A stretch of 64,000 nucleotides of DNA, taken from NCBI GenBank assembly GCA_965200465.1, contig OZ241358.1, forward strand, positions 1,189,872 through 1,253,871. The letters are read 5' to 3'. The position numbers and the translations under genes were made by a program. The stretch comes from Candidatus Azophilus sp. (GTDB lineage Bacteria; Pseudomonadota; Gammaproteobacteria; Pseudomonadales; Azotimanducaceae). The notes under the pieces were generated by a model, which was not told where the DNA came from, made no database searches, and saw only the letters and a list, made by a program, of their open reading frames with translations. This document shows positions 11,358 through 30,980 of the stretch, one piece after another; position 1 is the stretch's first letter, and each line of letters opens with the position of its first letter.

Positions 11358-11414
11358 GCCGACGGATGGCGTTGCCATCATTTCTCTAGTCAGAGGCAAT
11401 CAGGAGAGGCGAAC

Positions 11415-15221: not shown

Positions 15222-15339
15222 ACTTTCAGCAATGGCGGGCGCCGCTGGCTGCTCATGGCGATGCGCCAAGCCGTGCATCGATTTGCTTCAAGGATGCCGT
15301 GATATGCTGCCCTGATCTCAGGTCGCAGCGGGAGGACCA

Positions 15340-15822: not shown

Positions 15823-16115
15823 ACAAAACCGGCTATTTTTGGGCCTTCTTTCCGATGCACACGGCAAGCCTTTTGGCGGGCATTCTGAATGCCCCGTGGA
15901 AGACCAATGAGGACCGGCGGAACCTCCTGCCCGGCCCATGCAACGACGAACTGATCGATGCCGCTGCGGAATTGGCGGCGAAAGCGCTGCCCAAGCTCTC
16001 CTTGCCAACCGACCCTGCGAAGCACTTGGACGCTTTGCCGCGCCGGGAGGAAGCGGGAGACGGCGAGCACAGCAGAAGGTTGCGGGAAAGGCTGCTTGCG
16101 GCCCTGCGTGACTAA
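15660..16115 (+). pseudogene. Fragment of a larger gene (sacsin/HATPase-like family suspected)
   Basis: This open frame has no convincing start (the track starts at GTG 15786, but the frame is open further upstream). It encodes ...VRIAWAAPLDGLNKTGYFWAFFPMHTASLLAGILNAPWKTNEDRRNLLPG. I recall this block from the middle of >1000-aa ATP-binding proteins; here only ~110-150 codons are present. Confidence 0.3.
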
Positions 16116-16207
16116 AAAGTTGTTCCGGACCAAGGCGGCCAACAATATGGACAACTTCAACAGGGAGTTGGCGTTTACGGATTTGGATTGGCTGTGGGCG
16201 TAGTCCG

Positions 16208-16906
16208 CTATGCGGGGGAGATGAAGGACTTCAATTGGTTGGCGAGGCTGGAGCAGGCGGAGGAGCGCACTCTGGCGATGATGGGGATGGGCACGATGAC
16301 CGCCGGCACATAGCTCATGCCGGTGGCTTCGGAACTGATCCTGCCGGCGTTCCGGCCGGTGTTGACGTCCCATACCGAGGCTTCGTAGGAGGAGTCGTTC
16401 TCCCAGGAAAGGAAGCCGAAGCAGCCGCCGCCGCCGGGCGCTACGGCGCAGGTCAGGGAGCCGCCGGAGTCGGTGCGCTCGGTGGAGCCCTCTATCCACA
16501 CCAGATACTTCAGGCGCATCCGCTCCAAGCGTTCGGCCAAGGGCGGCTGCTTGATGATCTCCGGCAGGTCGGCGCTGTTGAGGGGTGCGATGCGCGGTTC
16601 AAACCAAGGGAAGACGGCGTCGATGAACTGCTGCTCGTCAATGACGTTGAAACCTTCCGCCCCGCGGCTCATGTTGTCCGCCACGCAGCTGATGAAGTCC
16701 AGCTCCGTTTCGTCCGCGGTCGGCTGGCTGCGGCGGCCAAGCACCACGATGGCGTCGCCGCCGGACATGGCCGTGTCCGTCTCGCGGATTTCCTGCACCG
16801 TGGCGGTGACGCAGCCGCCTAGCAGCACACACGCCAGAAGGAGCGCCAAGCCGCGCCCTGGGCCAACTGTGGACGCTTCGTCTTGAGGTTCCGCCCTCCC
16901 GAACAC
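16208..16906 (-). CDS. Hypothetical lipoprotein
   Basis: Lipobox-like LLLACVLLGGC, then a Cys-containing soluble domain. The start is uncertain (GTG at 16906 is the nearest upstream start codon). It lies on the same strand downstream of the MotA/vWA cluster. Confidence 0.5.
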   Translation of the reverse strand: MFGRAEPQDEASTVGPGRGLALLLACVLLGGCVTATVQEIRETDTAMSGGDAIVVLGRRSQPTADETELDFISCVADNMSRGAEGFNVIDEQQFIDAVFPWFEPRIAPLNSADLPEIIKQPPLAERLERMRLKYLVWIEGSTERTDSGGSLTCAVAPGGGGCFGFLSWENDSSYEASVWDVNTGRNAGRISSEATGMSYVPAVIVPIPIIARVRSSACSSLANQLKSFISPA

Positions 16907-17022
16907 GGGGTTGCCGGGTTGCCGGATGGGGACTGCGCCCTGGCGCCGCACCCTGCACCCGGCTTGGAGTGAGGCGCCGCGGGCGGCTGGGCGAATCTTG
17001 TGCTGCCTTGGCTGCCTGCACT

Positions 17023-17679
17023 TCATGCCGCCGCTCCCATTTCCTTCGCCAGCCATGCCTGCACCACCGGCACGCTGGCGAACTGCTGGGTGAAGAAGGC
17101 CATGGCGTCCCGGCAGGCGGCCATAGCCGCATCCTGCAGGGCGCTGGAGGCGCCGGCGTGGTTCTGCTTGTGCGCCTTGCCGTAGGCGGTCAAGTCCCAG
17201 CCGCCGAGTTCGACGCCCTGGTTGTCGTGCAGCTTGAAACGATAGCGCAGCCAGACCTCGTAGTAGTCCGAGCGGCTCTGCTCCGGGGTGGCGAACTGCA
17301 CCTCCTCGATGGAAGGCGACAGCACTCCGGCAATGTCAGGATGCTTGGCGTCAACGCGCTCCACCAGCCGATGGCCGGCGAACATGCCCTCCAGCAGGTT
17401 GGCGAACATGGCCGGCTGGGCGGCGCCGAGCTCGATCTCCCAGTCCCCCCGCTGCTCCAAGGACTCCCGGTGGATGTAGGCGAGCAGCGCGTCGTCGAGG
17501 TGGAGGCCCACCGGCAGCGGCACCTTTTCCACCAAGGGCACGGGAAACTGGGTGGGCACCGCCACCTTGGCCCCGGCGCAGCCCACCAACAGGGCCAAGG
17601 CGAACAGCAGCGGGAGGGCTCGGACAAGCCTAGGTTCAGGCCGTCCTCCAGCGCCTTCGGTTGCGGGACAAAGGCGCAT
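17023..17679 (-). CDS. Hypothetical lipoprotein
   Basis: The ATG at 17679 gives MRLC...LPLLFALALLVGCAG (lipobox LVGC). The longer track ORF N-terminus (to 18000) is not protein-like. An AT-richer putative promoter region lies upstream. Confidence 0.55.
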   Translation of the reverse strand: MRLCPATEGAGGRPEPRLVRALPLLFALALLVGCAGAKVAVPTQFPVPLVEKVPLPVGLHLDDALLAYIHRESLEQRGDWEIELGAAQPAMFANLLEGMFAGHRLVERVDAKHPDIAGVLSPSIEEVQFATPEQSRSDYYEVWLRYRFKLHDNQGVELGGWDLTAYGKAHKQNHAGASSALQDAAMAACRDAMAFFTQQFASVPVVQAWLAKEMGAAA

Positions 17680-18027
17680 ACGGCTTTCTCCGAAACTGAA
17701 AATATCCTTGAAAAACAACGACATGGAAAGAATTCTGCAACAGATCCTCGGCCGCGGTTGCCGGCTGTAACGAGGAACAGCCAGCCGAACTGCACCGAGT
17801 GGCGGCGCCGCCCATGCAGCGCTGGGCCAACCCGCGGCCGCGCCGTGCAGCGGCGGAATCCGCACTGAGTTCCCGTGCTTGTGGACGCTGACCCTGCGGA
17901 AAAGGGCGCACACGGCCGGGGATTGGGCTGCGCCCCGGGTGAAGCCTTGAAGCGCTTTCGGCAATGGACTGAATGTGAAGGGCATTGCTGCGTCGGACAA
18001 ACGGGTTGCTGCGGCCTGCCGCCTAGA

Positions 18028-19020
18028 TTACTGGAATTCAGACAAGCCGACAAAGGCGCCTTCGTTGCGGTGCGCCAACTCCCGCATCAGCGCGGCGAAG
18101 CGGTAGATGCGGGCGTTGGGCCGCTGCAAATGCACCGGAAAGCCCACGGCGTTGATGCGCACCCGCCGCCGCCCGGCTTCGTCGGCGACGTTGATGCGGT
18201 CCACCGCATCGACCACCTCCTCTATGGAGTCGCCGCTGTAGTCGTCGCCGAACACATAGATGCCGATGCGCTTGTCCGGCGCGTAGAAGGCGTCGATGGC
18301 GGCCTGAATGCCCTCCACCGGGCTGGAGTTGCTGAACGGGCTCCAACTGCGCAGGGTGTTGATGATGGACTGCCGGCGCGCCGGCGTGTCGGGAATCCAC
18401 TGGCCGCGGTAGCCTGAGAACATGTACTCGCCCATGTCGTTCATCACTTGGATGCCCTTGACGGTGGGATAGACGTCCAAGGTCTCCTGCACCTTGCGCA
18501 GCACCTGCGGCCAGGCGCCGTTGAACATGCTGCCGGAGGTGTCGATGACGAAGATGATGTACTCGCTGTCAACGGCGATGCCGCCCACCAAGTCGCTTTG
18601 GCGGCGGAAATCCATCCCCAGCAGGCGCTCCATCTCGTCGGTGAGGGTCTGGCGGGCGGCGGCCAGCTTCAGGGTCTGCCGCCGCACTTCCTCGTTCGTC
18701 TGCGCGGTGGCCCTGTGCCGGCCGAGCACTCGGGTCAACTCCTCGCGCATGGCGGCCAAGGCCAGCAGGTTCTTGTCCAGCTGGGCGGCGGCCTGCTCCA
18801 CCTGCCGGCGCAGCTCCCGAATCTGGCCCTGGATGTCGTGCAGGGCCTGTTCGCGGCTGGCGACCTGCCCATCCAGGCTGACTGCGGACTTCTCCAGCAG
18901 CACCGGCGCCACCGTCTTGGTGATGAGCAGCAGCAGGATGATGGCCCCGAAGCCGCAGCAGATCACGTCTAGAAAGGAGACGCTGAACTCCTCCATCGGC
19001 CGGCGTCCGCGAATGCTCAT
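18028..19020 (-). CDS. ExbD/TolR-like TM anchor - coiled coil - vWA domain protein (paralogue 2)
   Basis: N-terminus RRPMEEFSVSFLDVICCGFGAIILLLLIT aligns with the in-window ExbD INLTPMLDVVFIMLIFFIV, including the TM Asp. About 100 aa of heptad-like Q/E/R/L sequence follow. The vWA domain has MIDAS DxSxS (FVIDTSGSM). Confidence 0.75.
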   Translation of the reverse strand: MSIRGRRPMEEFSVSFLDVICCGFGAIILLLLITKTVAPVLLEKSAVSLDGQVASREQALHDIQGQIRELRRQVEQAAAQLDKNLLALAAMREELTRVLGRHRATAQTNEEVRRQTLKLAAARQTLTDEMERLLGMDFRRQSDLVGGIAVDSEYIIFVIDTSGSMFNGAWPQVLRKVQETLDVYPTVKGIQVMNDMGEYMFSGYRGQWIPDTPARRQSIINTLRSWSPFSNSSPVEGIQAAIDAFYAPDKRIGIYVFGDDYSGDSIEEVVDAVDRINVADEAGRRRVRINAVGFPVHLQRPNARIYRFAALMRELAHRNEGAFVGLSEFQ

Positions 19021-19033
19021 GGCGCACCGGCCA

Positions 19034-20125
19034 TCAGGGCCAGTCCTTGGAGGGCGCCATGTAGGCGCCGCCGCTGGTGCGGGCTAGGTTCCAAAAGGCG
19101 GCGGAGGCCAAGGGGTCGCCCTCCATCGGCATCAGGATGACGTTGATCGGCACTTGCGGGGGCAGTTGCCGCAGCGCCGCCCGGAACAGGCTGAGCCGGT
19201 CGGCGCCGGAAATGGTCGCCCGCCGCGGCCTTCCGGCGCCCTGGGTGGGCAGGGAGTCAGTCACCAAATAGACGTTGTCCGGCAGGGGGTTCAGGGTGCG
19301 CAGCTTGGCGGCCAAGCGCTCCAGGCTGGTGCCGCCTTTCGGGGTCATGGCGCCTAAGCGGTCGATGGCTGCGGACAGCGCCCGGCCGTCGCCTAGAGGC
19401 GTCCACTGCTCTTCGCTGTCCGGTACTAAGGACAGCGCCTCTTCGCTGAAGGCGAACAATTGGAAGTCCGCGTCCAAGGGCAGTTGCGCGGCCAGCCACT
19501 CCACCGTGCGCACCGCCCGCCGCCACTTGGGAGCGTTGCGCTGGCGCTCCTCCGGCATGTTGCGGCGGCGCAGCACGTTGACGATGGTTTCGTCGAGCAT
19601 GCTGGCGGATGCGTCGATGGCGATGAGGATGTTGCGCCCGCCGACCTTCAGGCCGGTGAGGTACTGCCGATCCCCCTCGCCGACGAACGCCCTGGCCTTG
19701 CCGCCTTCGTCGGCCTCCTCCATTTGGCGCAGCCGGCGCACCTCCTCCTCACGGGCCGCCACGTCGCTGCTCAGCTTCTCCAGGGAGCGCCGCTCCGCCG
19801 AAGACTCGGCGCTTAGGTCGTCGAACGCCTCGCGGGATTGGCGCAGGTCGGCCTGCACGCTCACCAGCTTGCGGCTTGATTCGCTCAGCCGCTGGGCCAG
19901 CGCCTGCAGCCGCTCCCGCCATTCGAACAGGTCCTTCTCGCCGGCTTGCACCTGATAGTCGAGCAGGCGGACTTCGGCAAGCTGCTCCCGGTTGACGACC
20001 TTGGCGTTCTCCTCGGTCTCATGGTTGATGATCAGGAAGATCAGCACCACCGCCCCGAAGCCGCAGGACATGACGTCCAGAAACGACAGCGAGAAGACGC
20101 TCGGCCGCCGTCCGCTGCGGCGCAC
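19034..20125 (-). CDS. ExbD/TolR-like TM anchor - coiled coil - vWA domain protein (paralogue 1)
   Basis: GTG start overlaps the upstream stop (TAGTG). N-terminus RRPSVFSLSFLDVMSCGFGAVVLIFLII is followed by a long coiled coil. The vWA domain has MIDAS IAIDASASM. Same architecture as the 18028-19020 product. Confidence 0.75.
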   Translation of the reverse strand: MRRSGRRPSVFSLSFLDVMSCGFGAVVLIFLIINHETEENAKVVNREQLAEVRLLDYQVQAGEKDLFEWRERLQALAQRLSESSRKLVSVQADLRQSREAFDDLSAESSAERRSLEKLSSDVAAREEEVRRLRQMEEADEGGKARAFVGEGDRQYLTGLKVGGRNILIAIDASASMLDETIVNVLRRRNMPEERQRNAPKWRRAVRTVEWLAAQLPLDADFQLFAFSEEALSLVPDSEEQWTPLGDGRALSAAIDRLGAMTPKGGTSLERLAAKLRTLNPLPDNVYLVTDSLPTQGAGRPRRATISGADRLSLFRAALRQLPPQVPINVILMPMEGDPLASAAFWNLARTSGGAYMAPSKDWP

Positions 20126-21261
20126 TAAGGGCCTTCCTCCACAAGGATGAACTGGAAGCGCCGGCCGTCCCCTTCGTGCATTTCGCCAACGCGCCCCCGC
20201 TCCGGCAGACCGAAGGGATTGCCGCGCAACGGCCAGGCGCGATGGCCCTGCAGGGCGTGGGTGGCGGCCGGCGGCGGCGCTGGGGCGCTGCTTGGGGCGA
20301 CGGCGCCCCTTGGCAGCGTCGTAACCAACTTCAACCCGTCAAGAACACCCTCATGCTGGGCGGCGGCGCGGCTTAAGACGTCCTCCGGCAGGGCCTCGGG
20401 GCGCAGGCCGAGATCACTGAGCGCCGCCATCAGCCCCGGCAGGGCGGCGCTGCGGGGCGCCACCAGCAATTGCGCGTCGGCGGGCACCTTCTCGGCCGCC
20501 GGCGCCAAGCGTTGGGCCAGCTTGTCCTGCAGCGCGGCGCGGCTTAGTTGGGTGCGCCGCACGGCGCCGCGGTGCGTAACCTCCAAGGCCAGGTCGGCTT
20601 GGCCGCCGCTGCGGGACCAAGCGTGCAATTGGTCGTAGAGCTGCTGTTCGGTGTCCGCGGCGTGCAGTGGGTCGAAGCGCAGCTCCTGCACGAAGCGGTC
20701 CGCCGCCAGGTTGGCCCAACCGTCCAGGCAGGAGTTGAGGCCGGCGCTGGCCAGGGGCTCCACTGCGCCGCGGCCCAGCTCTTCGCCGCAGCGAAGTTCG
20801 GTGAGGCAGCAGCGGGTGGCGTGCAGGTCCAGCAGCCAGGTGGGCGGTTGCAGCCGCGCCGCGCTCGCCATCAACAAGGCGGTGTCCACAAAGGCGCGCA
20901 GCTCGAAGCCGGCCTCGTTGGCAATGCCGAGCAGGACGCCGAGTTGCTCCTTGGCCAGAAATCCCGGCACGGCGGCTATGGCCGGCTGTTCCGCCAAGCC
21001 CTGCAACTCCAGCAGGTGCCGATAGACCAGATCCGCATGATTGGCCACCTGCCGCCCCGGGTGCGGCAGCGGGTCCGCGTTCAGCCGCGCCAGATATTGC
21101 TGGTTCGCCTTCTGCGGATGGCGGCGGGCGTTCTTGAGGGCGGCGTCCCCGAAGGTCAGGGCGTCGCCGTCCAGATAGGCGATGGCCGGCTGTTGATGCA
21201 GGATGCGGCCGTCATGGTGCAGGCTGAGAGCCGCGTCGTTGAGCTCCAGCACCAGGGGCAT
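20125..21261 (-). CDS. Cytoplasmic hypothetical protein, possibly a degenerate Hsp70/actin-fold (ASKHA) protein
   Basis: No TM or signal peptide. LVLELNDAALSL, AAVPGFLAKEQLGVLLGIANEAGFELRAFVDTALLMA and WLLDLHATRCCLTEL resemble the Hsp70 phosphate-1, connect and phosphate-2 blocks, but the Gly-rich ATP-binding residues are replaced. The fold call is an inference. Confidence 0.5.
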   Translation of the reverse strand: MPLVLELNDAALSLHHDGRILHQQPAIAYLDGDALTFGDAALKNARRHPQKANQQYLARLNADPLPHPGRQVANHADLVYRHLLELQGLAEQPAIAAVPGFLAKEQLGVLLGIANEAGFELRAFVDTALLMASAARLQPPTWLLDLHATRCCLTELRCGEELGRGAVEPLASAGLNSCLDGWANLAADRFVQELRFDPLHAADTEQQLYDQLHAWSRSGGQADLALEVTHRGAVRRTQLSRAALQDKLAQRLAPAAEKVPADAQLLVAPRSAALPGLMAALSDLGLRPEALPEDVLSRAAAQHEGVLDGLKLVTTLPRGAVAPSSAPAPPPAATHALQGHRAWPLRGNPFGLPERGRVGEMHEGDGRRFQFILVEEGP

Positions 21262-21361
21262 GGCTACGGCCGGCTGCTGCGGCTGTTGCCGGAGGCCAGC
21301 GGCCGCGGAGCGCCGCCGCGGTGCGGGCCGGGCGCCGCGCTGTCCGCTTTGGACGGCGGCC

Positions 21362-22165
21362 TCACTGGCCCCGCACCTGAAGATGGCTCATTAGGCGCTG
21401 GTCGCAGTAGGTCTGCACGTCCAGCACCAGGCGCTCCTGAACGAGCTGCAGTTGGTGCATCAGGAACATGATGACGATGCTGATGACCAAGGCGATGAAG
21501 GTGGAGTTGAAGGCCACGCCTAGGTTGGCCGTCACCCCGGCGATGTCCCCCTCCACGGCCTTGTAGGCCTGTCCAAGGGCCTGGCTGATGCCGCGCACCG
21601 TGCCGATGAAGCCTATGCTGGGAATCGCCCAGGCGATGTAGCGGACCATGGCCAGTTCGCTGTCCAGCCGGTCCGATTCGCTGTCGCAGACCGCCTTGAC
21701 GGCCACCGAGACGTCCTGCACGTTGCGGGTGGCGGCGAAGCGCTGCAGGGCGGACAGCAGCGCCCTTGGCAGCAGCCGCTCCCGCACCGGCGCCGGCAGC
21801 GCCTGAATGGGGCGGGCGTATTCCCGGGCGTCCTCCGGCAGGATGCTCATGCCGTCCGCCACCCGGATGACGTCCTCCGCCAAGAGGCGGCGTTCGCGCA
21901 GGGCGCTGCGGCCCTTGTAGCCCATGATCGCCATTGCCCAAAGCATCAGCACGAAGCAGGACTCCTGCTCGAAGTCCTTGAGCATGACGTAGAGGGACTG
22001 CTGCTCGTCAACGCGCTCGCCGGCCGCCGCCTGCTCGGCCCGCAGTTCAAGGACGGCTTGGGCGTTGGGGCGCACGACGGTGATGTAGAGCAGATGCACG
22101 ACGATCAGCGCCAGCACCAAGGCGGCTATCTGGTAGATCAGCTCCGTGGGCAGTGGCCGCTTCAT
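21362..22165 (-). CDS. MotA/TolQ/ExbB proton-channel family protein
   Basis: 267 aa with three TM helices. The motif AIPSIGFIGTVRGISQA plus FNSTFIALVISIVIMFL parallels the in-window ExbB CPLLGLLGTVTGMISVF. Confidence 0.8.
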   Translation of the reverse strand: MKRPLPTELIYQIAALVLALIVVHLLYITVVRPNAQAVLELRAEQAAAGERVDEQQSLYVMLKDFEQESCFVLMLWAMAIMGYKGRSALRERRLLAEDVIRVADGMSILPEDAREYARPIQALPAPVRERLLPRALLSALQRFAATRNVQDVSVAVKAVCDSESDRLDSELAMVRYIAWAIPSIGFIGTVRGISQALGQAYKAVEGDIAGVTANLGVAFNSTFIALVISIVIMFLMHQLQLVQERLVLDVQTYCDQRLMSHLQVRGQ

Positions 22166-22557
22166 ATATCCACCGGGAAGGGCGCGGCGAAGTCCTCGGA
22201 AATTTCCTCGGAGGGCAGGAACACTTCTTGACGCGGCCCTTCATTCCTTGCGGCTTCGGCATCGCCGGCCGGGTCGGCGCGGCCCTCCGCGGCGGGCGCC
22301 GGCGGCGCCTCGTTCGGAGGCTTCGCCGCCGGCCGCTCCGCCGCTTGCGTGGCGCCGGCGAGGCCGCAAAGCAGCAGGACGGCCGCGCCGCGCCGGATGC
22401 AGCCTAGGTGGAGCCAAGCGCAAGGCGACCGGTCGAACCGCTCTGCATGGCCCGTCCGCCCTGGCGCCGCCGCTGCCTTGGAGACATTGCGCAATTGCGG
22501 CCGCCGCCGGCGAGCGGGAGGGCTTCCTGTTGATGCGCAGCGCATGTTCGTTTCCAC
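22162..22557 (-). CDS. Small single-pass membrane or secreted protein, acidic Pro/Ala-rich C-terminus
   Basis: Hydrophobic segment GAAVLLLCGLAGATQA followed by a Pro/Ala/Glu-rich tail. Its stop overlaps the MotA-like start (ATGA). Only the ATGs at 22557 and 22545 are available as starts, so the N-terminus is uncertain. Confidence 0.4.
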   Translation of the reverse strand: METNMRCASTGSPPARRRRPQLRNVSKAAAAPGRTGHAERFDRSPCAWLHLGCIRRGAAVLLLCGLAGATQAAERPAAKPPNEAPPAPAAEGRADPAGDAEAARNEGPRQEVFLPSEEISEDFAAPFPVDI

Positions 22558-22597
22558 TTAGCCTTAAGCCTTGGCCAGCCGCCCGGCGCCGGCATTC

Positions 22598-24643
22598 CTA
22601 GGGCGCGGCCTCCGCAAAGCGGGCGATTCTAAAGCCTAGATCCGGCCGGCCGTCAATGCCGTAGTCGCGGAATGACAGCCTGAGATCGGTGACGGTGCCG
22701 TGCATCCAGCTGGAGCCGCGGATGACATGATACTCCCCCGCGGCCGGCCCTAGAGGGCCGACGCCTTCGGGGACCGGATGCTGGTAGTAGTCGTTGGTCC
22801 ACTCCGCCGCGTTGCCGCCTAGGTCGAAGAGGCCCTTGGCGTTGGCGGCGAACGCGCCCACCGGCGCCGCTACGGCGTAGTTGTCGTTGTAGCCGAAGAC
22901 GACCCGTCCGACCAGATGGCCGGCGGAGCGGTCCGCGTAGTTGCCGTGGCGGTCGGGTGGCGGCAGGGCCTCCCCCCAGGGAAAGCGAAGCAGCGTCGCC
23001 GCGCCCTCCTGGGTGCGGGCCGCCCAGGCCCACTCCGCCTCCGTCGGCAGCCGGTAGCCAGTGGCTTGCGGGTTGAAGCCGGTCGCCTTGCCGAACTCCT
23101 CGATGTAGAACGGCGGCAGGTTTTCCCGGCGGGACAGCCAGTTGCAGTAGAGTGCGGCGTCGTGCCAGCTTAAGCTCGCCGCCGGCTGATCGTCCTTGTT
23201 CAGGGGCTGGTCCTCGTAGGAGCCGGAGTCATGGCCGCTGGCGAAGGCCCTGAACTCCGCGTTGGTGACCTCCTTGACGGCTAGGTAGAACAGCCGCTTG
23301 AGCGCCACGTCGCGCAGGGTTTCATTGGCCCGCCGGCCCGCCTCCCTTCTGGAGGCGCCTAAGGTGATGGGGCTGGGCTGCAGCAACCTCAGCACCTGTC
23401 CCTGAGCCGTGGTGATTTCCGGGGGCAGCGCCGCCAGCCGCGCCTCCTCCAAGGTCAGCAGGTTGGCGCGCACCTCCAGGGTAAGCCCCGGCCGCGGGGT
23501 GACCTTGGCGCTGTGGTCGGCGTAGCCCGGTGCGCTGATTCTTAAAGTGTGGCGGCGAGCCGGCAACTCCAGGGTTTGGTTGGCCGGCCCGGCCGGGCGT
23601 CCGTTAACGTGCAGCAGGGCGTTGGCCGGGGAGGCCTGCACCGCCACCGCCCCGACCAGTTGCTCAAGCTCCAGGGACAGCGTTCGCGCTTCGCCGGCCG
23701 CCAGCCGCAGGTTCGCCTCCCGCGCCGCGAAACCGGCTTTGAAGACCCGCACGCGATAGGCGCGGCCGGAGCGAAGCTCCACCCGCAGCGGGGATTCGCC
23801 CTGATACTTGCCGTCGATGGTTACGCCGGCGCCGACCGGCCGGGTGCTTAGGCGCAGCGAGGCGTCGGCCTGCCGCAGCTTGATGGGGGAGGGGGCGCGC
23901 CGCTCCTGCGCGACGACCAGAATGCGCTGGCGATGGGCTTGGTGGCCGTCGAGCAGCAGCGCCACCTCATGCTCCCCGGCCAGGATCTCCGTAGTCGCCG
24001 GGGTGCGCCGGCCGGTGTCCCGCCCATCGACCAGGATGCGGGCGCCGGGCGGCTCGGTGACGTAATGCACTTCGCCCCAGTTGGGCGTCAACTCCGCATC
24101 CACCCGTTGCGGCCGCCGCTTGCCAACCACCGTCACCGGCAGCTCCCTTGCTTGATGGCGTGGATGGGTGAAGCGCAACAGCCGCTTCCCGGCCGGCACG
24201 GGAACGTCCGTCAACGGCGTTGCGCCGACGGCCTTGCCGTCAATGCTCACCGAGGCACCGGCGGGAGCGGAGTGGACGCTCAGCAGGCCGGGCAGGGGGG
24301 TGAACTCAAAGGCGAAGGCTTGGTTTCGTTCGGGGCCGACCCGCAGTTCCTTGTCCAAGGGATGATGGCCGGCGAGTTCCGCCCGCACCCGGTAGCTTTG
24401 GCGCAGCAGCAGATGAACGCCGCCGAAGGCGAGAGCCGGGCCGCCGGCAAGCTCCACCCGGTCGGCCGGCGGCGAAAACGCCAACTCCACCGAGCGGGCG
24501 GTGAACAGGAACACCAGCAAGGCGGCGGCGCCCAGCGCCACGGCCGCCAAGGCGATCGGCACCGGCGCGACCTTGGAGCGCCTTGCTCCCGCCGCTGCCG
24601 AAGGCTGATAGCGAATGGGCTGGATCGCCGGGCCGTCGGTCAT
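22598..24643 (-). CDS. Membrane-anchored PEGA-repeat protein with C-terminal FGE-sulfatase (SUMF1/GldK-like) domain
   Basis: The ATG at 24643 overlaps the upstream stop (ATGA). It has TM helix VPIALAAVALGAAALLVFLF and at least four ~70-aa PEGA-like repeats (e.g. LSVHSAPAGASVSIDGKAVGATPL..., LRLSTRPVGAGVTIDGKYQGESPL...). The C-terminus carries FGE-fold blocks AASLSWHDAALYCNWLS, YRLPTEAEWAWAAR, GGNAAEWTNDYY, RGSSW and LGFRIARF. Confidence 0.8.
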   Translation of the reverse strand: MTDGPAIQPIRYQPSAAAGARRSKVAPVPIALAAVALGAAALLVFLFTARSVELAFSPPADRVELAGGPALAFGGVHLLLRQSYRVRAELAGHHPLDKELRVGPERNQAFAFEFTPLPGLLSVHSAPAGASVSIDGKAVGATPLTDVPVPAGKRLLRFTHPRHQARELPVTVVGKRRPQRVDAELTPNWGEVHYVTEPPGARILVDGRDTGRRTPATTEILAGEHEVALLLDGHQAHRQRILVVAQERRAPSPIKLRQADASLRLSTRPVGAGVTIDGKYQGESPLRVELRSGRAYRVRVFKAGFAAREANLRLAAGEARTLSLELEQLVGAVAVQASPANALLHVNGRPAGPANQTLELPARRHTLRISAPGYADHSAKVTPRPGLTLEVRANLLTLEEARLAALPPEITTAQGQVLRLLQPSPITLGASRREAGRRANETLRDVALKRLFYLAVKEVTNAEFRAFASGHDSGSYEDQPLNKDDQPAASLSWHDAALYCNWLSRRENLPPFYIEEFGKATGFNPQATGYRLPTEAEWAWAARTQEGAATLLRFPWGEALPPPDRHGNYADRSAGHLVGRVVFGYNDNYAVAAPVGAFAANAKGLFDLGGNAAEWTNDYYQHPVPEGVGPLGPAAGEYHVIRGSSWMHGTVTDLRLSFRDYGIDGRPDLGFRIARFAEAAP

Positions 24644-26205
24644 TGCTGCAGCGCTTCCCGGCAACTGATGTCTATGGGCGCCATGTCCTCGGCCACGGTG
24701 ATCTGGGCGCGGAAGTCCCGGCAGCCGTCGCGGCTGGCGACGATGGTGTAGGCGCCGGGCCGCAGGCGCAGGCGTTTTTCGGAGAAGCGGCCCAAGGGAC
24801 CTATGTTGGAGAGCAGCACCTCGCTGGCGTTGTCCGAGCGCAGCAGCACCGGCACCGGGCTGCCGTAGCGCCGCAGCAGGGCGTCCGCTGCGGCGACGGC
24901 GGCGGCCAGCACGGGGCCTTGGGGGGCAAGCCGCTTGGCTTCGTCCAGCGCCTGCAAGGCGTCTCGGTAGCGCGCCTCGGCGGACAGCAGGTCCGCGTTG
25001 GCCATGAGTTCGTTCAGGGCCTCCAGAGTTCGCCGCTGGGTTGCCGCCCGCCGCAGTCCGGCCTTGGCGAACTGGACATTGGCGTCCAAGGCCAAAATGC
25101 CCTGGTAGGCGTCCGCCGCCTGCCGCCATTGCTCAGCGGCGGCGAAGGCCGCGGCTTGCTGCTTGAGGCGGCTGATTTCCGCCAGCACCGACTGTTCCGC
25201 GAGCTGCTGCAGGCCGCCGAGGGCGGACGAGTTGTTGGCGTCCATGGCCAGCGCCTGCTCGAAGGCGCTTCTGGCCGCGGCGAACTCCTGCCGCTCCAAG
25301 GCCGCGAAGCCTGTGGAAAGATGGCTGCGCAGCCTTTGCGCCGCCTCGTTCCGGCGGGCTTGGGCAAGGGCGTCGGCGAGGCCGGACGTTGCGGCGTCCA
25401 AGGCGCGGATGCCCTCGTAGGCGCGGACGGCGTCGGCCCAGCGCCCGGCCAGTTCGTGGTTGCGGGCTTGGCGAAATCGGTCGAGCAAGTCCGGCAGCCG
25501 GGCGGCTCGGGCCGCGGCTTGCGCCAACCTTGGGCTGTCGGGCTTGATTTGCTTGGCTTGGTCGAGCTGGGAGCGGGCCTCTTCGGAATTGCGGGCGTCA
25601 ATGGCGGCGAGCGCCGCCGCCAAGGCGCCGTTGAACTGGGAGTGGCCGGCTGCGAGCAACGCGGCCAAGGCGTCCGCCGCTTGCCGGTAGCCGCCGATGG
25701 CCTGCTCAAAGCGTTCGGCGACGAAGGCTTCATCCCCGGCTTGGGCTAGGTCGCGGGCTTGGTCATAGCCTTCCTGTCCCCATGCGCCGACGTTCAGTTC
25801 GTCGCGCAGGCGCAGCTCCAGCTCCACGAAGCGGGCCAGCGCGGCGCTGGCGTCGGTGCGCGCCTGCTCCCGGCGCAAAGCGGCGAAGGGGGGCGGCTGT
25901 TCGGCGGCCGGGCGGCTGGGGCGCGGCGTCGTGGCGGCGCCCTCCTGCGTTGGCGGGGGAGGCTTGACAACAGGTGCCCACTGGGGCGCCAGAGTGAACA
26001 GCGTCGCCACCATGGCGGCGGCCGCCAAGCCGACGGCGGCGTAGAGCGGCCAGCGGCGGCCGTCGGCGCCCGATTTGGCCGTCGTCCGGTTGGCGTGGGT
26101 AAGTGGAACCGGCTGCGGTTCGATCAGCGGCGAATCGCCGACGGGCCTCCGCTCCGTCCCGACTAGGGACGGAGCCCCGGGTTTGGGTCCTGGCTCATTC
26201 TTCAC
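24640..26205 (-). CDS. Single-pass membrane protein with TPR-like helical repeats and a C-terminal PEGA-like beta domain
   Basis: TM helix WPLYAAVGLAAAAMVATLFTL and a Pro-rich linker. The repeated Ala-rich helical hairpins are TPR-like (WADAVRAYEGIRALD, FAAARSAFEQALAMD, WRQAADAYQGILALD). The C-terminus RLRPGAYTIVASRDGCRDF resembles a PEGA strand motif. Confidence 0.65.
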   Translation of the reverse strand: MKNEPGPKPGAPSLVGTERRPVGDSPLIEPQPVPLTHANRTTAKSGADGRRWPLYAAVGLAAAAMVATLFTLAPQWAPVVKPPPPTQEGAATTPRPSRPAAEQPPPFAALRREQARTDASAALARFVELELRLRDELNVGAWGQEGYDQARDLAQAGDEAFVAERFEQAIGGYRQAADALAALLAAGHSQFNGALAAALAAIDARNSEEARSQLDQAKQIKPDSPRLAQAAARAARLPDLLDRFRQARNHELAGRWADAVRAYEGIRALDAATSGLADALAQARRNEAAQRLRSHLSTGFAALERQEFAAARSAFEQALAMDANNSSALGGLQQLAEQSVLAEISRLKQQAAAFAAAEQWRQAADAYQGILALDANVQFAKAGLRRAATQRRTLEALNELMANADLLSAEARYRDALQALDEAKRLAPQGPVLAAAVAAADALLRRYGSPVPVLLRSDNASEVLLSNIGPLGRFSEKRLRLRPGAYTIVASRDGCRDFRAQITVAEDMAPIDISCREALQQ

Positions 26206-26229
26206 CCTGGAGGCCGCGGTCTGGATGGC

Positions 26230-27432
26230 TTACGCGGGGTCGTCCGTCTCGGCCGGCGCCGGGGCGGGCAGCCCTAGGTCTGCAAAGTAGAGTTCGCGCA
26301 GGATGCGGCGCAGTTCCTGGTATTGCTGATCGACCGTGCCCTGCAGGCGCACGGTCTGGTTCTCCAACTCCAGGGTGTGGGGCATGATTTCGGCCTCCGC
26401 CGCCATGCCGATCTCCTGCAGGGCCTCCGCCTGCATGGCGGCCTCGTTCCTTTTCGCCACCGCGCCCTTGATCAAGGCGGCGCCGGCGCCGATGGCGACT
26501 AAGCCGGTGGCGTCAATGTAGGGATTGCTGCTGTCGTAGATGGCGCCGATGCCGGCGCCGATGGCGGCGGCGCCGGTCAGGGCGCGGGTGCGCGCCTGGG
26601 CCTTGAGTTCGCGCAGGGCGGCGGCCTCCGAGTAGGTGGCGTTGCGCCATTCCTGATAGGGGCGGTGCATTTGCCGATGGTAGTTGGCGTAGTGTTCGTC
26701 CAGGGTGTCGATGAAGACGTACTCGCGCTCCCGCACTTGGCGCACCCGCGCCAGCATGGGGTCGTCCTCCGCCGGCAGCCGCAGCAGCTTGAAGCCGCCC
26801 TCGGGCAGCGCCTGCACATGGCTGGCGAAGGCGTCCGGCGCGAAGTCCCGGGCGAACTTCATCTCCGCGGTGGCGCGGATGGCGCGGATGGTTGCGTCGT
26901 CCAACGTCTCCCGGTAGGCCAGCATGTCGTCCGCCAACTGCCGGTAGTTGGCTTGGAAGGGGTCGATGCCCGGCGGCATGGTCGGCGAATAGGCGTATTT
27001 GCTGGCCAGCGCCCGGTAGGTCCTGCTGAACCAAACCTGGCCGCGGGCGTCCGCCACCGTGAATTCCTGGGTGAGGCGTTCGCCGTCCGACTCCAGAATC
27101 TTGCCGGTGACGGTGACGTCCACGGCGTGGGTGGGCCGGGGAACCACCCGCACGGCGCCCCAGTTGCCGGTGCTTTGCAGCACGTTCTTGGCGAAGTAGG
27201 GCATGAACTGCGCTTCGGCGCGACGAATGTCCGGGTTGATGAGTTGGGCGACCTGCTCGTCAAAGCTCTCCGGAATGTTGGGGTCCAGCACGGCGACGCC
27301 GATGTCGAGCAGGTGCGTCTCGTCCTGAACGCCTTGGAACTGCTTCGGCGGCGTTAGGTCCACCGTGCGCACGGATTCGGAGACGCAGGCGGTGAGCGCC
27401 GCCATGCAAAGGGCAATGGGGATGAGGCGCAT
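26230..27432 (-). CDS. Hypothetical lipoprotein with C-terminal glycine-zipper segments
   Basis: MRLIPIALCMAALTACVSE (lipobox LTAC). Near the C-terminus are two Gly/Ala-rich hydrophobic segments, GAAAIGAGIGAIY and LVAIGAGAALIKGA. The start lies 2 nt after the upstream stop. Confidence 0.65.
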   Translation of the reverse strand: MRLIPIALCMAALTACVSESVRTVDLTPPKQFQGVQDETHLLDIGVAVLDPNIPESFDEQVAQLINPDIRRAEAQFMPYFAKNVLQSTGNWGAVRVVPRPTHAVDVTVTGKILESDGERLTQEFTVADARGQVWFSRTYRALASKYAYSPTMPPGIDPFQANYRQLADDMLAYRETLDDATIRAIRATAEMKFARDFAPDAFASHVQALPEGGFKLLRLPAEDDPMLARVRQVREREYVFIDTLDEHYANYHRQMHRPYQEWRNATYSEAAALRELKAQARTRALTGAAAIGAGIGAIYDSSNPYIDATGLVAIGAGAALIKGAVAKRNEAAMQAEALQEIGMAAEAEIMPHTLELENQTVRLQGTVDQQYQELRRILRELYFADLGLPAPAPAETDDPA

Positions 27433-27434
27433 GG

Positions 27435-28385
27435 TCAGCGGCCCTTGTATCTCTCGTATTCCGCCCAGAGTTTCTCGCGCAGCACTGGGTCCTGCTCCGC
27501 CATGGCCGCTTCGCGCAGTTGCCGGGCGATGATGTCGTCGTCCTTGGCGTCCGGGACGCCGCCCGCCGTCCGTCCGCCGCCGCTGCCCGGCATGGCCGGG
27601 GCGGGGCGCGGCGCTCTGGTGGTGCGTGCGCCGGGAGATGCGGCCTTGCCACCGCCTCCGGCCGGCTTGGCGGGGGCTGGTTGCGGAACCCCGCCGCCGG
27701 TTCCGGCGGTGCCGCGGTTGGAGCGTTCGGTGATGACGGAGCGTTCCGCCAGAATCTCTCCGTCGAACGCCTCAAGAGCTTGCTCCAGGGCGCCTTGCCC
27801 GCTTGCCGGAGCGCCGCCCTTGGCGCCTGAACCCGGCAGGCTGCTGGGGTTGCCGCCGCTGGGCGCTTGGCTGCCGGAAGCGGAACCGCCGGGCACGGAA
27901 CCGCTGGGTGCGGAGCTGCCGGGGACCGAACCGCCGGGCGCCGTTCCACTGGGCATGGCGCCGCCGGCTGGGGAATGGCCGGGTGCGCCGCCGCCGGGCG
28001 TTGAACCATCGGAGGATGGAGCGCCTGTTGAGCCTGGCGCGTTTGGCGGCGGCGGTATGCGCGCCTGCCCAGCGCCGCCGGGCATGGAGTTGGACGAACC
28101 GCCGGAAGTTCCGCCGGGGCTTGGCGCTCCTGCAGGCTCGGCGCCGCCCGGCAAACCGCCTGGGCTGGGCAGACCGCCTCCGGGAAGGCCGCCACTGGGC
28201 AGTCCTCCGCTGGGCAGTCCTCCGCTGGGCATGCCGCCGCCACTTGGCCCGCCGCTGGAGGAACCGCCGCTGGGGCCGGAGGACGAAGGCGATTGCGGCT
28301 GCTGCGGATAGAGCGGCGATATGGGCGCACAGGCCCACAGCAGAGCGAGCAGGGCGAAAAAAGCAATCTTGCAAGCGGCGCTCAT
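27435..28385 (-). CDS. Gly/Ser/Pro-rich low-complexity lipoprotein
   Basis: The ATG at 28385 gives MSAACKIAFFALLALLWACAP (lipobox LWAC). About 230 aa of G/S/P repeats follow (PSGGLPSGGLPSGGL...). The C-terminus is an ordinary helix, DDIIARQLREAAMAEQDPVLREKLWAEYERYKGR. Strand was chosen from the lipobox and operon context. Confidence 0.55.
   Translation of the reverse strand: MSAACKIAFFALLALLWACAPISPLYPQQPQSPSSSGPSGGSSSGGPSGGGMPSGGLPSGGLPSGGLPGGGLPSPGGLPGGAEPAGAPSPGGTSGGSSNSMPGGAGQARIPPPPNAPGSTGAPSSDGSTPGGGAPGHSPAGGAMPSGTAPGGSVPGSSAPSGSVPGGSASGSQAPSGGNPSSLPGSGAKGGAPASGQGALEQALEAFDGEILAERSVITERSNRGTAGTGGGVPQPAPAKPAGGGGKAASPGARTTRAPRPAPAMPGSGGGRTAGGVPDAKDDDIIARQLREAAMAEQDPVLREKLWAEYERYKGR
28195..28239. 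repeat. 15-bp tandem repeat x3 inside the Gly/Ser/Pro-rich lipoprotein gene
   Basis: ctgggcagtcctccg ctgggcagtcctccg ctgggcatgccgccg, read directly. On the minus strand it encodes the PSGGL pentapeptide repeats. More degenerate G/S/P-coding repeats extend over about 27850-28290. Confidence 0.8.
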
Positions 28386-28548
28386 GGCTGGCTTGGCATC
28401 CAACGGGGTGGAGCAGCCCTGGCCGCGGCGGCCTTGGCGTGATCGCAATCCGTCATGGGTTTCCCGAATCCAAGCCGTACGGCCAGTTTGGCCGCCCCGC
28501 TTGGCCGAAGGGGGGCGAGGCAGATGCGCCGCACGACCGGCAGGCGGC

Positions 28549-29940
28549 TTAGGCGTCTTCATCGTCCGCGTCCTCCTCCCGCACAAAGTAGCTGAATTCA
28601 TGCCGGTAGGTTTCCTGTTCAAAGGCGGTGGTTCGGCCATCGACCAAGGCCGGGCGGTAGCGGGCGTTGCGCAGGCTGCGGCGCACCGAGAAGTCCATCA
28701 TGCCCTTCGGCTCGGAGGCCACCACCTGCATGTTCTGGACGCCGCCGGTGGGCGACACCCGAAACGCCACCTCCACGAAGCCGGGGTTCTCCTTCCCCGC
28801 CAAGGCCCGCCGCCCCGAAGGCGGCTTTGGATCCTTGGGCAGGGGCATGTGCAGCAGCTTCGGCTTGGCGAAGTAGGCCTCGGCATCCACTGAGTCGAGT
28901 TGCTGCATGACGCCGTAAACGTGCTCGTAGAGGACTTCCGCCTTGTTGAAGCGCTCCCAAAGCAGGTGCCAGTCGGCCAGGTCCAGGATGGCTTCCGAAA
29001 CCGGCAGGGGGCCGCTGGCGGGATCTTCCCGACGAATGTGGATGACCGCCTGCAGCGCCCTCTCCGCCACGGGGAAGTTGTTGAAGGTCAGGGGCGCGTC
29101 GAAGGCCGAGGTGCGCACGCTGGGCCGGGTGGACATGGCGAACGCCGGCGCCTCCCGCTCGCTGGCGTAAAAGGGCGGGAAGCGCTCCATGCGGTAGGTT
29201 TCGGCAAGCCCCTGCAGCGCTGGGATGGCCTTGGGCGCCCCCTCGTCGCCGTTGGCCGCATGAATGCGCAGCGCCTGCTCAAACAGGGCGCGGGCGGCGA
29301 AGATGTTGTACCTTGCGTTGTGCCACTTGGCGAGGCGGAAGATGCCGGGCAGCAGGGCCTCGCTGTCCGCCCCGTGAGCCTTCCACAGGACTTCAAAGGC
29401 GTACTCCTCGCGGCTGGCGGCCTCCTCCAGGTTGCCGAGGCGCTGCAGCGCCTCCGACTGCTTGTAAACCGCTTCGACCTGGTTGGGGGTGAACAGGCCG
29501 TCGCTGACCCGGCTGACGTGGACCGCCGTGGCGTAGCTTTGCAGCGCTTCCTCGTATTGGCGAAGGCCGAACTGGGCGTCGCCAAGCAGGGTCAGCGGCC
29601 TAGCCAAGTCCCCGTGGTGGCGGTGGCGGGCGGCTTCAAGGGCGCGGATGTAGGGCACTAGGAAGGCTTGCGCCTTCCCGTATTCGGCGTTGTCGATGTC
29701 AACCGCCACCGCATCGAGCGGCGAGGCCGTTGCGCCAAGGGCTTCCTTGATGCGCTCCATCGCCGCCGCAACCGAGGATTCCCCAGCCGCGGCGGCTTGC
29801 GGCGCTGCGGCCTCCGGGCGAGCCTTAAGCTCGGCGGCGCCGGCCGCGCCAGGCAGCGGCAGCGCCAGCAGAACAACGGCCTGCACCAGCAGCAAGCAAC
29901 CGCGCCGCCGCCCGGCGCGGCTTTGCAAGGACGTCGCCAT
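28549..29940 (-). CDS. Secreted TPR-repeat protein with C-terminal TonB-C-like domain
   Basis: The ATG at 29940 gives a signal peptide (CLLLVQAVVLLALPLPGAAGA). The central region is TPR-like. A KDPKPPSG linker precedes GFVEVAFRVSPTGGVQNMQVVASEPKGMMDFSVRRSLRNARYRPALVDG. That block aligns with the in-window TonB C-domain GYVLLEFVVTRTGAVRDPVVLESKPPGIFDRAALNAALKFKYKPKVVNG. Confidence 0.65.
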   Translation of the reverse strand: MATSLQSRAGRRRGCLLLVQAVVLLALPLPGAAGAAELKARPEAAAPQAAAAGESSVAAAMERIKEALGATASPLDAVAVDIDNAEYGKAQAFLVPYIRALEAARHRHHGDLARPLTLLGDAQFGLRQYEEALQSYATAVHVSRVSDGLFTPNQVEAVYKQSEALQRLGNLEEAASREEYAFEVLWKAHGADSEALLPGIFRLAKWHNARYNIFAARALFEQALRIHAANGDEGAPKAIPALQGLAETYRMERFPPFYASEREAPAFAMSTRPSVRTSAFDAPLTFNNFPVAERALQAVIHIRREDPASGPLPVSEAILDLADWHLLWERFNKAEVLYEHVYGVMQQLDSVDAEAYFAKPKLLHMPLPKDPKPPSGRRALAGKENPGFVEVAFRVSPTGGVQNMQVVASEPKGMMDFSVRRSLRNARYRPALVDGRTTAFEQETYRHEFSYFVREEDADDEDA

Positions 29941-30080
29941 AGTGAACCCGTTCGCCCGGCCTCCTGTTCGCCAGCCTGCTTGCAGTGTGGAACCCGCACT
30001 TCGGCAAGTCAAGACGGAGGTTGATCGCGCACTCGCTTTGGGCCTATGCTGCCCGCTTGAATTGTCGGGAGGGATGGATC

Positions 30081-30980
30081 ATGACGAAGGCTCTAGCGTT
30101 GGCGGCGATGCTTGCAGCCGCATTCGCGCCGCCTTTGGCGGATGCGCAGGATTTTGAGGATCGCCATATCTTGCCGAACGTGTTTGAGGATGGGCTGAGC
30201 AACATTGAAGGTTTTATCCGGATTCACAATCTAAGCCTCGATAGAGCGCCCGTTAAATTGTCCGCCTATGACGACGCAGGCGTGTTTTGGGGAGACCGAA
30301 CAATCTTTTTGGACTCTAGCGGGGCCACGCACTTTAATTCCGGGGACCTTGAGAACGGCAATCCGGACAAAGGGCTGGAGGGGTTCGGCAATGGCAGCGG
30401 GAGGTGGACGCTGGTGATTGAAGGCCCGATTTTCGCAGGGTCGTACGCCAGAACGTCGGATGGCTTCTTGACCGCAATGCACACGGTGGCGCGGCCGGTT
30501 CCCAACTCTAACGAAGGATTATCGGATATCGACGACTACAAATACATCTACGTCATTCCCATCTTCAACCCAGGGCGCAACCGTGACCAGGTCAGCATAC
30601 TGCGCGTCAAGAACATGGAGAACTACGAGCATCAGTGCGCATTGGTGGGATTTGACGATGCAGCCGAGCAGGCTGGGCGCCCGATCGGGTTTTTTACGCT
30701 CGGTGCGGGTGTGGGCGCCGAATACACCGCCCTAGAGTTGGAGGACTTGATAGGCGACGGGGGAGGGAAATGGTATTTCCTTATCTTTTGTGACCGGATA
30801 CTCGTCTCCAGCCTTCTGCACTCCCGCCCCACTGGGTACATCACGAACCTCACCAACGCGGCTGTGGAAAGCCCCGCGCTCCGCGACTTCACGTCCTCCC
30901 AGCTGGAGAGGATCAGGCAGGCGTTCGCCAACTCGAACGCCATTGAAATCCGGCCAAGCCCCTCGCCGACACTGCATTAG
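30081..30980 (+). CDS. Secreted hypothetical protein
   Basis: The ATG at 30081 follows RBS gggaggga. Signal peptide is MTKALALAAMLAAAFAPPLADA. I recognise no family. GC is lower (52-58% in two spot-counted 60-nt lines) than in neighbouring genes (~70%). Confidence 0.6.
   Translation: MTKALALAAMLAAAFAPPLADAQDFEDRHILPNVFEDGLSNIEGFIRIHNLSLDRAPVKLSAYDDAGVFWGDRTIFLDSSGATHFNSGDLENGNPDKGLEGFGNGSGRWTLVIEGPIFAGSYARTSDGFLTAMHTVARPVPNSNEGLSDIDDYKYIYVIPIFNPGRNRDQVSILRVKNMENYEHQCALVGFDDAAEQAGRPIGFFTLGAGVGAEYTALELEDLIGDGGGKWYFLIFCDRILVSSLLHSRPTGYITNLTNAAVESPALRDFTSSQLERIRQAFANSNAIEIRPSPSPTLH

Follow-up and report, generated by a model that had tools for sequence, protein, structure and literature searches.

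Gene content and organization of the cluster

The window described here is a 64-kb stretch of the genome of Candidatus Azophilus sp. (contig OZ241358.1, assembly GCA_965200465.1), the whole of the DNA that was analyzed, and all coordinates refer to its positions. Between 29940 and 16208 its minus strand carries a cluster of twelve genes, all on that strand, which we name g1 to g12. They encode a MotA/TolQ/ExbB-family channel protein (g7), two proteins in which an N-terminal transmembrane (TM) helix is followed by a coiled coil and a vWA domain (g9 and g10), a cytoplasmic protein of Hsp70 fold (g8), four lipoproteins (g2, g3, g11, and g12) and four further envelope proteins (g1, g4, g5, and g6). 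Loci fetched from related genomes are denoted by L and a number. A preliminary description of this DNA had listed ten minus-strand genes and had suggested that two lipoprotein genes might extend them. All ten open reading frames (ORFs) are present as described there, and the two additional genes, g11 and g12, belong to the cluster (48 of 49 species-level loci).

Translational coupling is seen at five junctions. The four named in the preliminary description could all be read directly: TAGTG at 20123–20127, where the start of g9 overlaps the stop of g8 by one base; ATGA at 22162–22165, the g6/g7 overlap; ATGA at 24640–24643, the g4/g5 overlap; and a gap of 2 nt (27433–27434) between the stop of g2 and the start of g3. 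A further ATGA overlap, at 17023–17026, joins the stop of g11 to the start of g12. The spacer between g10 and g11 (17680–18027, minus strand) comprises 348 nt of non-coding sequence in the window, compared with a 4-nt overlap in L001 and a gap of ~50 nt in L005, and it contains neither a terminator-like site on the coding strand nor an Rfam family. The gap between g7 and g8 measures 100 nt. An Rfam scan of 15000–31500 returned no match, and promoter and terminator scans gave no signal above shuffled controls.

The cluster is conserved as a unit

We examined conservation through a scan for relatives of g8, using one genome per species, and then searched the fetched loci with the twelve window proteins (tblastn); 49 of these loci had enough flanking sequence. 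The scan returned 134 relatives, all labelled as Pseudomonadales or as other (Gamma)proteobacterial metagenome-assembled genomes (MAGs), and including Ca. Azophilus, Ca. Azotimanducaceae, OM182 and Exilibacterium. The twelve genes were strictly colinear in 46 of the 49 species-level loci. Both g9 and g10 were found in every locus (49/49), g3, g4, g5, g7, g11, and g12 in all but one (48/49), and g1 in 45/49. Cases in which g2 or g6 appeared to be missing are at least partly detection failures, the proteins being of low complexity or very short, and reading the ORFs directly recovered g6 in L076 and L080. Besides a rearrangement in the OM182-type loci (L076–L078), where g11 and g12 lie upstream and inverted, the only clear breaks in synteny were L022, in which g8–g12 are present and g1–g7 are absent at that place, and L029, where an additional ~2.9 kb separates g5 from g6 and g11 and g12 were undetected downstream of g10. 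The flanking genes vary among genomes (SUF operon, ruvCAB-tolQR, molybdenum-cofactor genes) while the twelve stay colinear, and the twelve genes are therefore a conserved, operon-like unit. This bears out the earlier proposal of a conserved operon-like cluster built around a MotA/ExbB protein and two TM-coiled-coil-vWA proteins.

The family is widespread. An exhaustive search with g9 returned 1373 clusters (50% identity) at E<1e-3 and 287 at E<1e-30; many of the lineages are represented here by MAGs only, and by locus label at least two phyla are covered. Named distant members came from Opitutae and Puniceicoccaceae (Verrucomicrobiota), Porticoccaceae and Ca. Eutrophobiaceae. Six distant loci, two of them labelled Verrucomicrobiota, were fetched through g9 alone, so that their choice was unbiased by the other genes. 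The preliminary description had suggested looking across genomes for co-occurrence of the MotA-like gene, the two vWA genes and the PEGA-FGE gene (g5), and all six distant loci indeed contained a PEGA-FGE protein, a MotA_ExbB protein and a g9-like and g10-like pair. In each pair the first vWA gene matched g9 best and the second matched g10 best. Five of the six also have a g8-like protein, encoded between the MotA gene and the vWA pair, and g3-like and g4-like proteins occur in the distant loci as well. The deep core of the system is g3, g4, g5, the small protein, g7, g8, g9, and g10.

A MotA/ExbB-family channel and paired vWA proteins as the proposed motor core

The product of g7 (21362–22165) is a member of Pfam MotA_ExbB (PF01618; 2.4e-14, 53.6 bits against a cut-off of 22.9), as the preliminary description had supposed, and is presumed to be the pentameric part of a motor. 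Its motifs WAIPSxGFxGTVRGI and AFNST do not vary in any sampled locus, distant ones included, and GF(I/V)GTVRGI and AFNST were found unchanged in 27 sequences. We take GTVRGI and NST to correspond to the pore-lining threonine motifs of TolQ (T145 and T178 in the E. coli protein).

The products of g9 (19034–20125) and g10 (18028–19020) are paralogues. At the N-terminus each has one TM helix, in which a protonatable Asp is conserved close to the cytoplasmic end, and in g9 this helix is followed by a helix or coiled coil of ~110 residues and a vWA domain with an intact metal ion-dependent adhesion site (MIDAS). An AlphaFold2 (AF2) model of g9 (mean predicted local distance difference test score, pLDDT, 76) shows a continuous helix at residues 23–143 (121 residues) and a vWA fold at 160–363, and Foldseek matched this model to vWA domains in the PDB with E-values of 4e-7 to 1e-5 (BatB, 3ibs, 2.7e-6; 4fx5, 3.6e-6). 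At the sequence level the vWA matches of both proteins are sub-threshold (Pfam VWA 0.0021 for g10). The DxSxS motif of the MIDAS, formed by D171, S173, and S175 in g9 and reading DTSGS in g10, does not vary in any sampled locus, and g9 also has the downstream GGT(S/N) and D290. The earlier assignment of vWA domains to both proteins is supported.

The TM segment is the most constrained part of g9, being 95% identical across the family compared with 55–68% outside it. In both paralogues the motif (S/A)F(L/M)D..CGFGA, Asp included, is invariant in every sampled locus, with the form SFLD..CGFGA in g10, and neither TM segment contains a His or an SHLS motif. Pfam and NCBIfam searches found no ExbD, TolR or MotB gene within the cluster.

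A motor of this composition has been predicted once. Based on gene neighborhoods and AlphaFold 3 (AF3) models, a recent study described TolQ-like pentamers with paired ‘transpore-helix vWA’ (TPH-vWA) proteins (Mol Biol Evol 2025, Fig. 4c,d; PMC12204202). In that work, a TM-tethered vWA family co-occurs tightly with tolQ homologues in Proteobacteria and Verrucomicrobia, mostly as heterologous pairs and with no co-occurring tolR or exbD, and an AF3 5:2 model is given for the same kind of gene pair. The cluster shares with these motors a tolQ-like gene linked to two heterologous TM-tethered vWA genes, the lack of tolR, exbD and motB, a conserved TM Asp with no SHLS, a conserved Thr in the pentamer, and a distribution in Proteobacteria and Verrucomicrobia. 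The text of that paper covers the tolQ and vWA pair only; PEGA-FGE, Hsp70-fold/FHA, FPxDI, lipoprotein and TPR-TonB_C partners are not described in it, and literature searches turned up no further paper with the full domain combination. The preliminary description had put the system forward as a candidate undescribed one, which holds for the partner set with respect to that text and not for the motor core. Full-length and rich in accessory genes, the cluster represents this once-predicted motor family.

Envelope proteins encoded with the motor core

The product of g5 (22598–24643) is a bitopic inner-membrane protein with an N-terminal TM helix and no lipobox. In agreement with the preliminary description, Pfam matches PEGA over four stretches (1.2e-47) and FGE-sulfatase over a further domain (3.8e-36). 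The latter is of a non-catalytic kind, and the FGE Cys pair is absent from every member of the g5 family (RGSSWMHGT...). The product of g4 (24640–26205) is also bitopic, with one TM helix at residues 54–72, a periplasmic region of TPR-like helical repeats and a C-terminal beta domain. Of its former designation as a TM-TPR protein the TM helix is confirmed, and the TPR call is sub-threshold (TPR_2, E 0.07). Homologues of g4 occur in L085–L088.

The small protein encoded by g6 (22162–22557) is secreted or anchored, has an uncertain start codon and contains an acidic linker. Its sole conserved part is the C-terminus, which reads ...EEISEDFAxPFPVDI in the Pseudomonadales loci and FPTDI, MPSDV, FPSDI, FPIDI or LPSDF in the distant ones.

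The lipoboxes of g2, g3, g11, and g12 are present in the window and conserved in orthologues (LWAC in g2, with MSAC or ISAC in orthologues; LTAC in g3; LVGC in g11; LGGC in g12). The lipoprotein encoded by g2 (27435–28385) combines a long linker rich in Gly, Ser and Pro with a helical C-terminus that is conserved; its ORF extends to 28640, with translation probably starting at the ATG at 28385. That encoded by g3 (26230–27432) has Gly-zipper-like segments near its C-terminus and is conserved beyond Pseudomonadales, with a median identity of 65% across 48 of the 49 loci and homologues in L085 (Opitutae, 1e-35) and L087 (8e-40). The remaining two, g11 (17023–17679) and g12 (16208–17026), were seen in gammaproteobacterial loci only. 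By hhalign, g11 aligned with its orthologue in L090 at 1.9e-26 and g12 at 1.3e-64, and no relation was detectable between g11 and the protein that occupies the same position, 3' of the vWA pair, in L086 or L088. Besides its lipobox Cys, g12 has four Cys (C62, C141, C150, and C206 in alignment numbering) that are invariant in all 26 aligned orthologues, which suggests two disulfides or a metal site. Pfam and NCBIfam searches placed g2, g3, g6, g8, g11, and g12 in no family, and profile searches of g3, g8, g9, g11, and g12 against PDB sequences gave coiled-coil or chance matches only.

A proposed proton-driven machine spanning the envelope

Gene content, synteny, folds and the conservation of key residues lead us to propose that the operon probably builds an envelope-spanning machine driven by a proton motive force (PMF) motor of the MotA/TolQ/ExbB (5:2) kind. 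In such a machine, g7 would form a pentameric channel, and the N-terminal helices of g9 and g10 would sit inside the pentamer as a heterodimeric axle. The invariant Asp residues of the two helices would take up and release protons, and the proton flow would turn or pull the dimer relative to the pentamer. The helical stalk of ~110 residues, about 16–18 nm long if fully helical, would then carry this movement across the periplasm to the two vWA heads, whose MIDAS sites may grip an acidic ligand on a partner protein. Candidate ligands are the ...FPVDI C-terminus of g6, the lipoproteins g2, g3, g11, and g12, and the FGE-fold and PEGA protein g5. On the cytoplasmic face g8, with its ATP-binding loops lost, might dock and act as either a scaffold or a clutch. 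Older versions of the system would have g8 read Ser/Thr phosphorylation through an FHA domain, which in this lineage appears to have been reduced to a stump. The output could be tethering or remodelling of the outer membrane, surface adhesion or movement, or force sensing.

Several points weigh against this proposal. The scores of g7 are far below the NCBIfam equivalog cut-offs for TolQ (30.5 bits against 221) and ExbB (12.8 against 206). The preliminary description had called g9 and g10 ExbD-like, and we found this to be statistically unsupported as a sequence similarity: neither protein matched Pfam ExbD (PF02472) at E<=0.1, a model against which the genuine ExbD of the window scores 100.6 bits, and a profile of the g9/g10 N-termini searched against the window ORFs together with E. 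coli TolR and ExbD (572 sequences) gave E 3.9 for TolR and E 13 for ExbD. The resemblance to ExbD is functional, residing in the conserved Asp, its position and the gene context, and is not demonstrated homology. Residues 1–24 of the g9 model, its N-terminus, are of low confidence (pLDDT <50), the pairing of g6 with a MIDAS site is pure inference, and the operon contains no outer-membrane beta-barrel or known output module detectable by Pfam or NCBIfam. Finally, the likeness to the TPH-vWA motors, whose seed proteins come from Idiomarina loihiensis, is one of described features.

A degenerate Hsp70-fold protein and its link to phosphorylation

The cytoplasmic protein g8 (20125–21261) has no Pfam match, HSP70 included, and no PDB sequence match. 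Its AF2 model, built on 47 homologues, has a pLDDT of 93.8, and Foldseek aligned it with the nucleotide-binding domains (NBDs) of DnaK, Hsc70 and Ssz1 (E 1e-14 to 1e-13, TM-score 0.6–0.67). The phosphate loops are degenerate: ‘LELNDAAL’ replaces ‘IDLGTTNS’ and ‘LDLHATR’ replaces ‘DLGGGT’, and the ELND and LDLH/Q replacements occur in all aligned members of the g8 family, those bearing an FHA domain included. The previous reading of g8 as a degenerate Hsp70-fold protein is accordingly upheld by both fold and loops. Because both Gly-rich phosphate loops are replaced family-wide, ATP hydrolysis of the usual type by g8 is unlikely, judging from the sequence.

Distant orthologues of g8 are ~120 residues longer and end in a canonical FHA domain (Pfam FHA 7e-12 in L088 and 5e-5 in L085; also present in L091, with the related Yop-YscD_cpl in L089). 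The window protein retains only what appear to be the first and last FHA strands (THALQGHRAWPL ... FQFILVEE), forming a C-terminal stump. A search with the FHA-bearing orthologue of L088 found three proteins only. Two kinases are encoded in L088 (1834–4410 and 13023–16964): one, a Ser/Thr kinase, has a g4-like region as its C-terminal part, and the other carries Laminin_G_3, FGE-sulfatase and Lectin_C domains and follows the cluster. Upstream of the cluster in the same locus lie an FHA-ABC transporter and a Gly-zipper protein.

The FHA and kinase links raise the possibility that, instead of performing mechanical work, the system signals across the envelope or serves as a trans-envelope scaffold, in either case linked to phosphorylation. 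In such a complex, a ligand in the periplasm or cell wall would be sensed by the vWA, PEGA and FGE domains, the MotA-like protein would act only as a regulated ion channel or membrane platform, and in the cytoplasm the Hsp70-fold/FHA protein would relay the signal. The canonical FHA domains of distant g8 orthologues, the two kinases of L088 and an operon without an outer-membrane channel or adhesin as output module all speak for such a complex. On the other hand, the whole Pseudomonadales branch lacks a kinase and has its FHA domain reduced to a stump while all other parts are kept, and the most conserved parts of the system are the TM Asp, GTVRGI and NST. Since these proton-relay residues are the most conserved, a working motor fits better than a passive anchor. 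We regard this explanation as unlikely; it carries the most weight among the alternatives, ahead of a Tol- or Ton-like function, a gliding or secretion machine and, last and poorly supported, a Zorya-type defence.

Relation to Ton and Tol systems

The first gene of the cluster, g1 (28549–29940), encodes a protein with a cleavable-looking N-terminal signal peptide, seen in the window and in orthologues, followed by TPR repeats (Pfam TPR_12 1.6e-9) and a C-terminal TonB_C domain (5.4e-8, 33.6 bits against a cut-off of 24.6; both matches above Pfam cut-offs), with a match to TIGR01352 at 3.9e-7. It lacks an inner-membrane anchor with an SHLS/His motif and Pro-rich spacer, and its scores against TonB equivalog models are far below their cut-offs. 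It was undetected by tblastn in the OM182-type loci L076–L078 and was also undetected in the distant loci L085–L088, and it is an accessory of mainly the gammaproteobacterial version of the system. Of the TonB-C-like part proposed in the preliminary description, the domain is real; the protein is secreted, is not a membrane-anchored TonB and is missing from the distant versions.

With g1 as coupler, the cluster could be a specialized analogue of Tol-Pal or Ton that tethers the outer membrane, or that drives uptake through a nearby TonB-dependent receptor. The likeness to ExbB-ExbD-TonB and TolQ-TolR-TolA includes g7 as a member of Pfam MotA_ExbB, the conserved TM Asp in its partners and an encoded TonB_C domain; the operon further encodes four lipoproteins. 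A TonB-dependent receptor (11328–13802, plus strand) lies together with a major facilitator superfamily (MFS) transporter 2.4 kb beyond g12, contrary to an earlier statement that no such receptor is adjacent. However, this receptor is on the opposite strand and does not adjoin the cluster, nor does the MFS transporter, in other genomes. In contrast to TonB, g1 has no TM anchor with the SHLS motif, and g9 and g10 lack the periplasmic domain of ExbD and TolR and show no significant sequence similarity to them.

The window moreover contains a complete TonB2-type cluster at 923–6123 (plus strand), comprising DUF3450, a large MotA_ExbB protein, ExbB, ExbD, TonB and a TPR protein, with ExbD at 3755–4162 (~100 bits) and a TonB whose TonB_C domain scores 1e-19. 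As the genuine ExbD sits in this complete set, the twelve-gene cluster is not the cell's Ton motor. The TonB2-type cluster probably serves the receptor at 11328–13802. In L090, from a gammaproteobacterial MAG, a canonical ruvCAB-ybgC-tolQ-tolR array lies ~6 kb downstream of the system (19164–20272), which indicates that the system coexists with Tol-Pal and is not its replacement. We consider a Tol- or Ton-like role unlikely, and a little less probable than signalling.

Comparison with gliding and secretion machines

A gliding or secretion machine would be akin in logic to GldLM-GldK or Agl-Glt, with a periplasmic ring of FGE fold driven by the motor. The GldLM/PorLM and GldK/PorK systems of type 9 secretion and gliding in Bacteroidota share with the cluster a PMF motor with a dimeric, one-TM subunit that has a long periplasmic extension, like the stalk of GldM, and an operon that includes a non-catalytic FGE-sulfatase-fold protein. 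In g5 the FGE domain matches the GldK model at 5.7e-21 and lacks the catalytic Cys pair, which GldK and PorK are not known to have either. Its score of 75.3 bits is nevertheless far below the 350-bit cut-off, and g5, with its inner-membrane anchor and PEGA repeats, differs from the outer-membrane lipoprotein GldK. Unlike g9 and g10, GldM is not known to have a vWA head. To our knowledge GldL is not in Pfam MotA_ExbB, whereas g7 is. The cluster contains neither GldN nor SprA, and its host phyla differ from Bacteroidota.

Agl-Glt of Myxococcus resembles the cluster in that a TolQ-like motor gene is clustered with TPR and TonB_C-type proteins, and in having a vWA protein, CglB, at its output end. 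It differs in its ordinary TolR-like AglQ and AglS, its membrane-anchored TonB_C proteins GltG and GltJ and its outer-membrane beta-barrels (GltA/B/H; PMC3169522), and it is not known to have a PEGA-FGE or Hsp70-fold protein. The Glt ‘core complex’ of Gammaproteobacteria was rejected as the identity of the cluster because it contains TolR-like genes (Luciano et al., PMC3169522). The preliminary description had concluded that the architecture matches neither Agl-Glt nor GldLM/K, and we concur; neither GldN nor SprA, nor any Glt beta-barrel or TolR-like homologue of AglQ/S, is present in the cluster. By their labels, the loci belong to uncultured and largely aquatic MAG lineages (OM182, Porticoccaceae, Opitutae). 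We know of no report of gliding in these groups, and we consider a machine of this kind improbable.

A Zorya-type anti-phage defence, with a MotAB-like sensor and effectors, is very improbable: a Type ISP restriction-modification gene lies directly upstream of the cluster (31180–34476), genes that look defence-related follow it immediately in a strain variant (L003) and g7 has a weak match to ZorA (0.0027), but that match (14.8 bits, partial) covers the generic MotA domain only, the operon contains no nuclease, helicase or other effector, the flanks in other genomes differ and are housekeeping-like (of the kinds listed above), and colinearity in 46 of 49 loci looks like vertical inheritance within the clade. 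Shared with Zorya are the MotA-family protein and the nearby restriction-modification genes of this genome; the cluster lacks a ZorB-type peptidoglycan-binding partner, the long ZorA tail, ZorC, ZorD and ZorE, and its distribution is clade-wide and vertical-looking. PADLOC, run to find a defence system, gave the partial ZorA match and coiled-coil noise on PbeC only, with no other real matches. The conflict systems with vWA, FGS and HSP70 of Kaur et al. 2020 (PMC7159879) were also set aside, having no MotA or ExbB component.

A possible distinct class of nanomachine

Few outputs are known for the MotA/ExbB/TolQ motor family: it rotates flagella, powers TonB-dependent import, Tol-Pal and type 9 secretion, and drives Glt gliding and Zorya defence. 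Returning to the proton-driven machine proposed above, we tentatively raise the possibility that it represents a distinct class. Such a machine would combine a 5:2 proton motor and a heterodimeric coiled-coil axle bearing two MIDAS vWA heads with, on the cytoplasmic side, an Hsp70-fold pseudo-ATPase, formerly a phosphothreonine (pThr)/FHA reader under Ser/Thr-kinase control, and, in the periplasm, a GldK-like FGE/PEGA protein, an FPxDI ligand and lipoproteins. Its output would be unlike that of Ton, Tol, flagellar, Glt or type 9 secretion systems, and might consist of PMF-powered, phosphorylation-gated probing or remodelling of the outer envelope.

Three elements are new relative to the published motor prediction. 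The first is a conserved partner set, the core of which is kept in every sampled locus. The second is the degenerate Hsp70-fold protein, with FHA in distant relatives and hence a link to Ser/Thr-kinase/FHA signalling. The third is the small protein with its conserved FPxDI terminus, which adds to the candidate ligands for the vWA heads. Together, the partner set, the kinase/FHA link and the candidate ligands make the system approachable by experiment, through multimer modelling, pull-downs and genetics.

Variable regions flanking the cluster

Upstream of g1, a 331-aa ORF (29985–30980, plus strand) for which no annotation was found is followed by the Type ISP restriction-modification enzyme, which is encoded on the minus strand (Type_ISP_C 1.5e-73). 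The GC content is 0.625 at 30001–32000 compared with 0.67–0.71 inside the cluster, and the region 29985–34476 may be an inserted island. On the other side, L003 is a strain-level variant of the window in which g6–g12 are 96–100% identical. After g12 it carries genes for PLDc_2, HATPase_c_3, a ResIII/DEAD helicase, PAPS_reduct and a 1071-aa protein (6211–13292), which look like a defence island replacing the aspartyl-protease-like ORF, the MFS transporter and the TonB-dependent receptor of the window.

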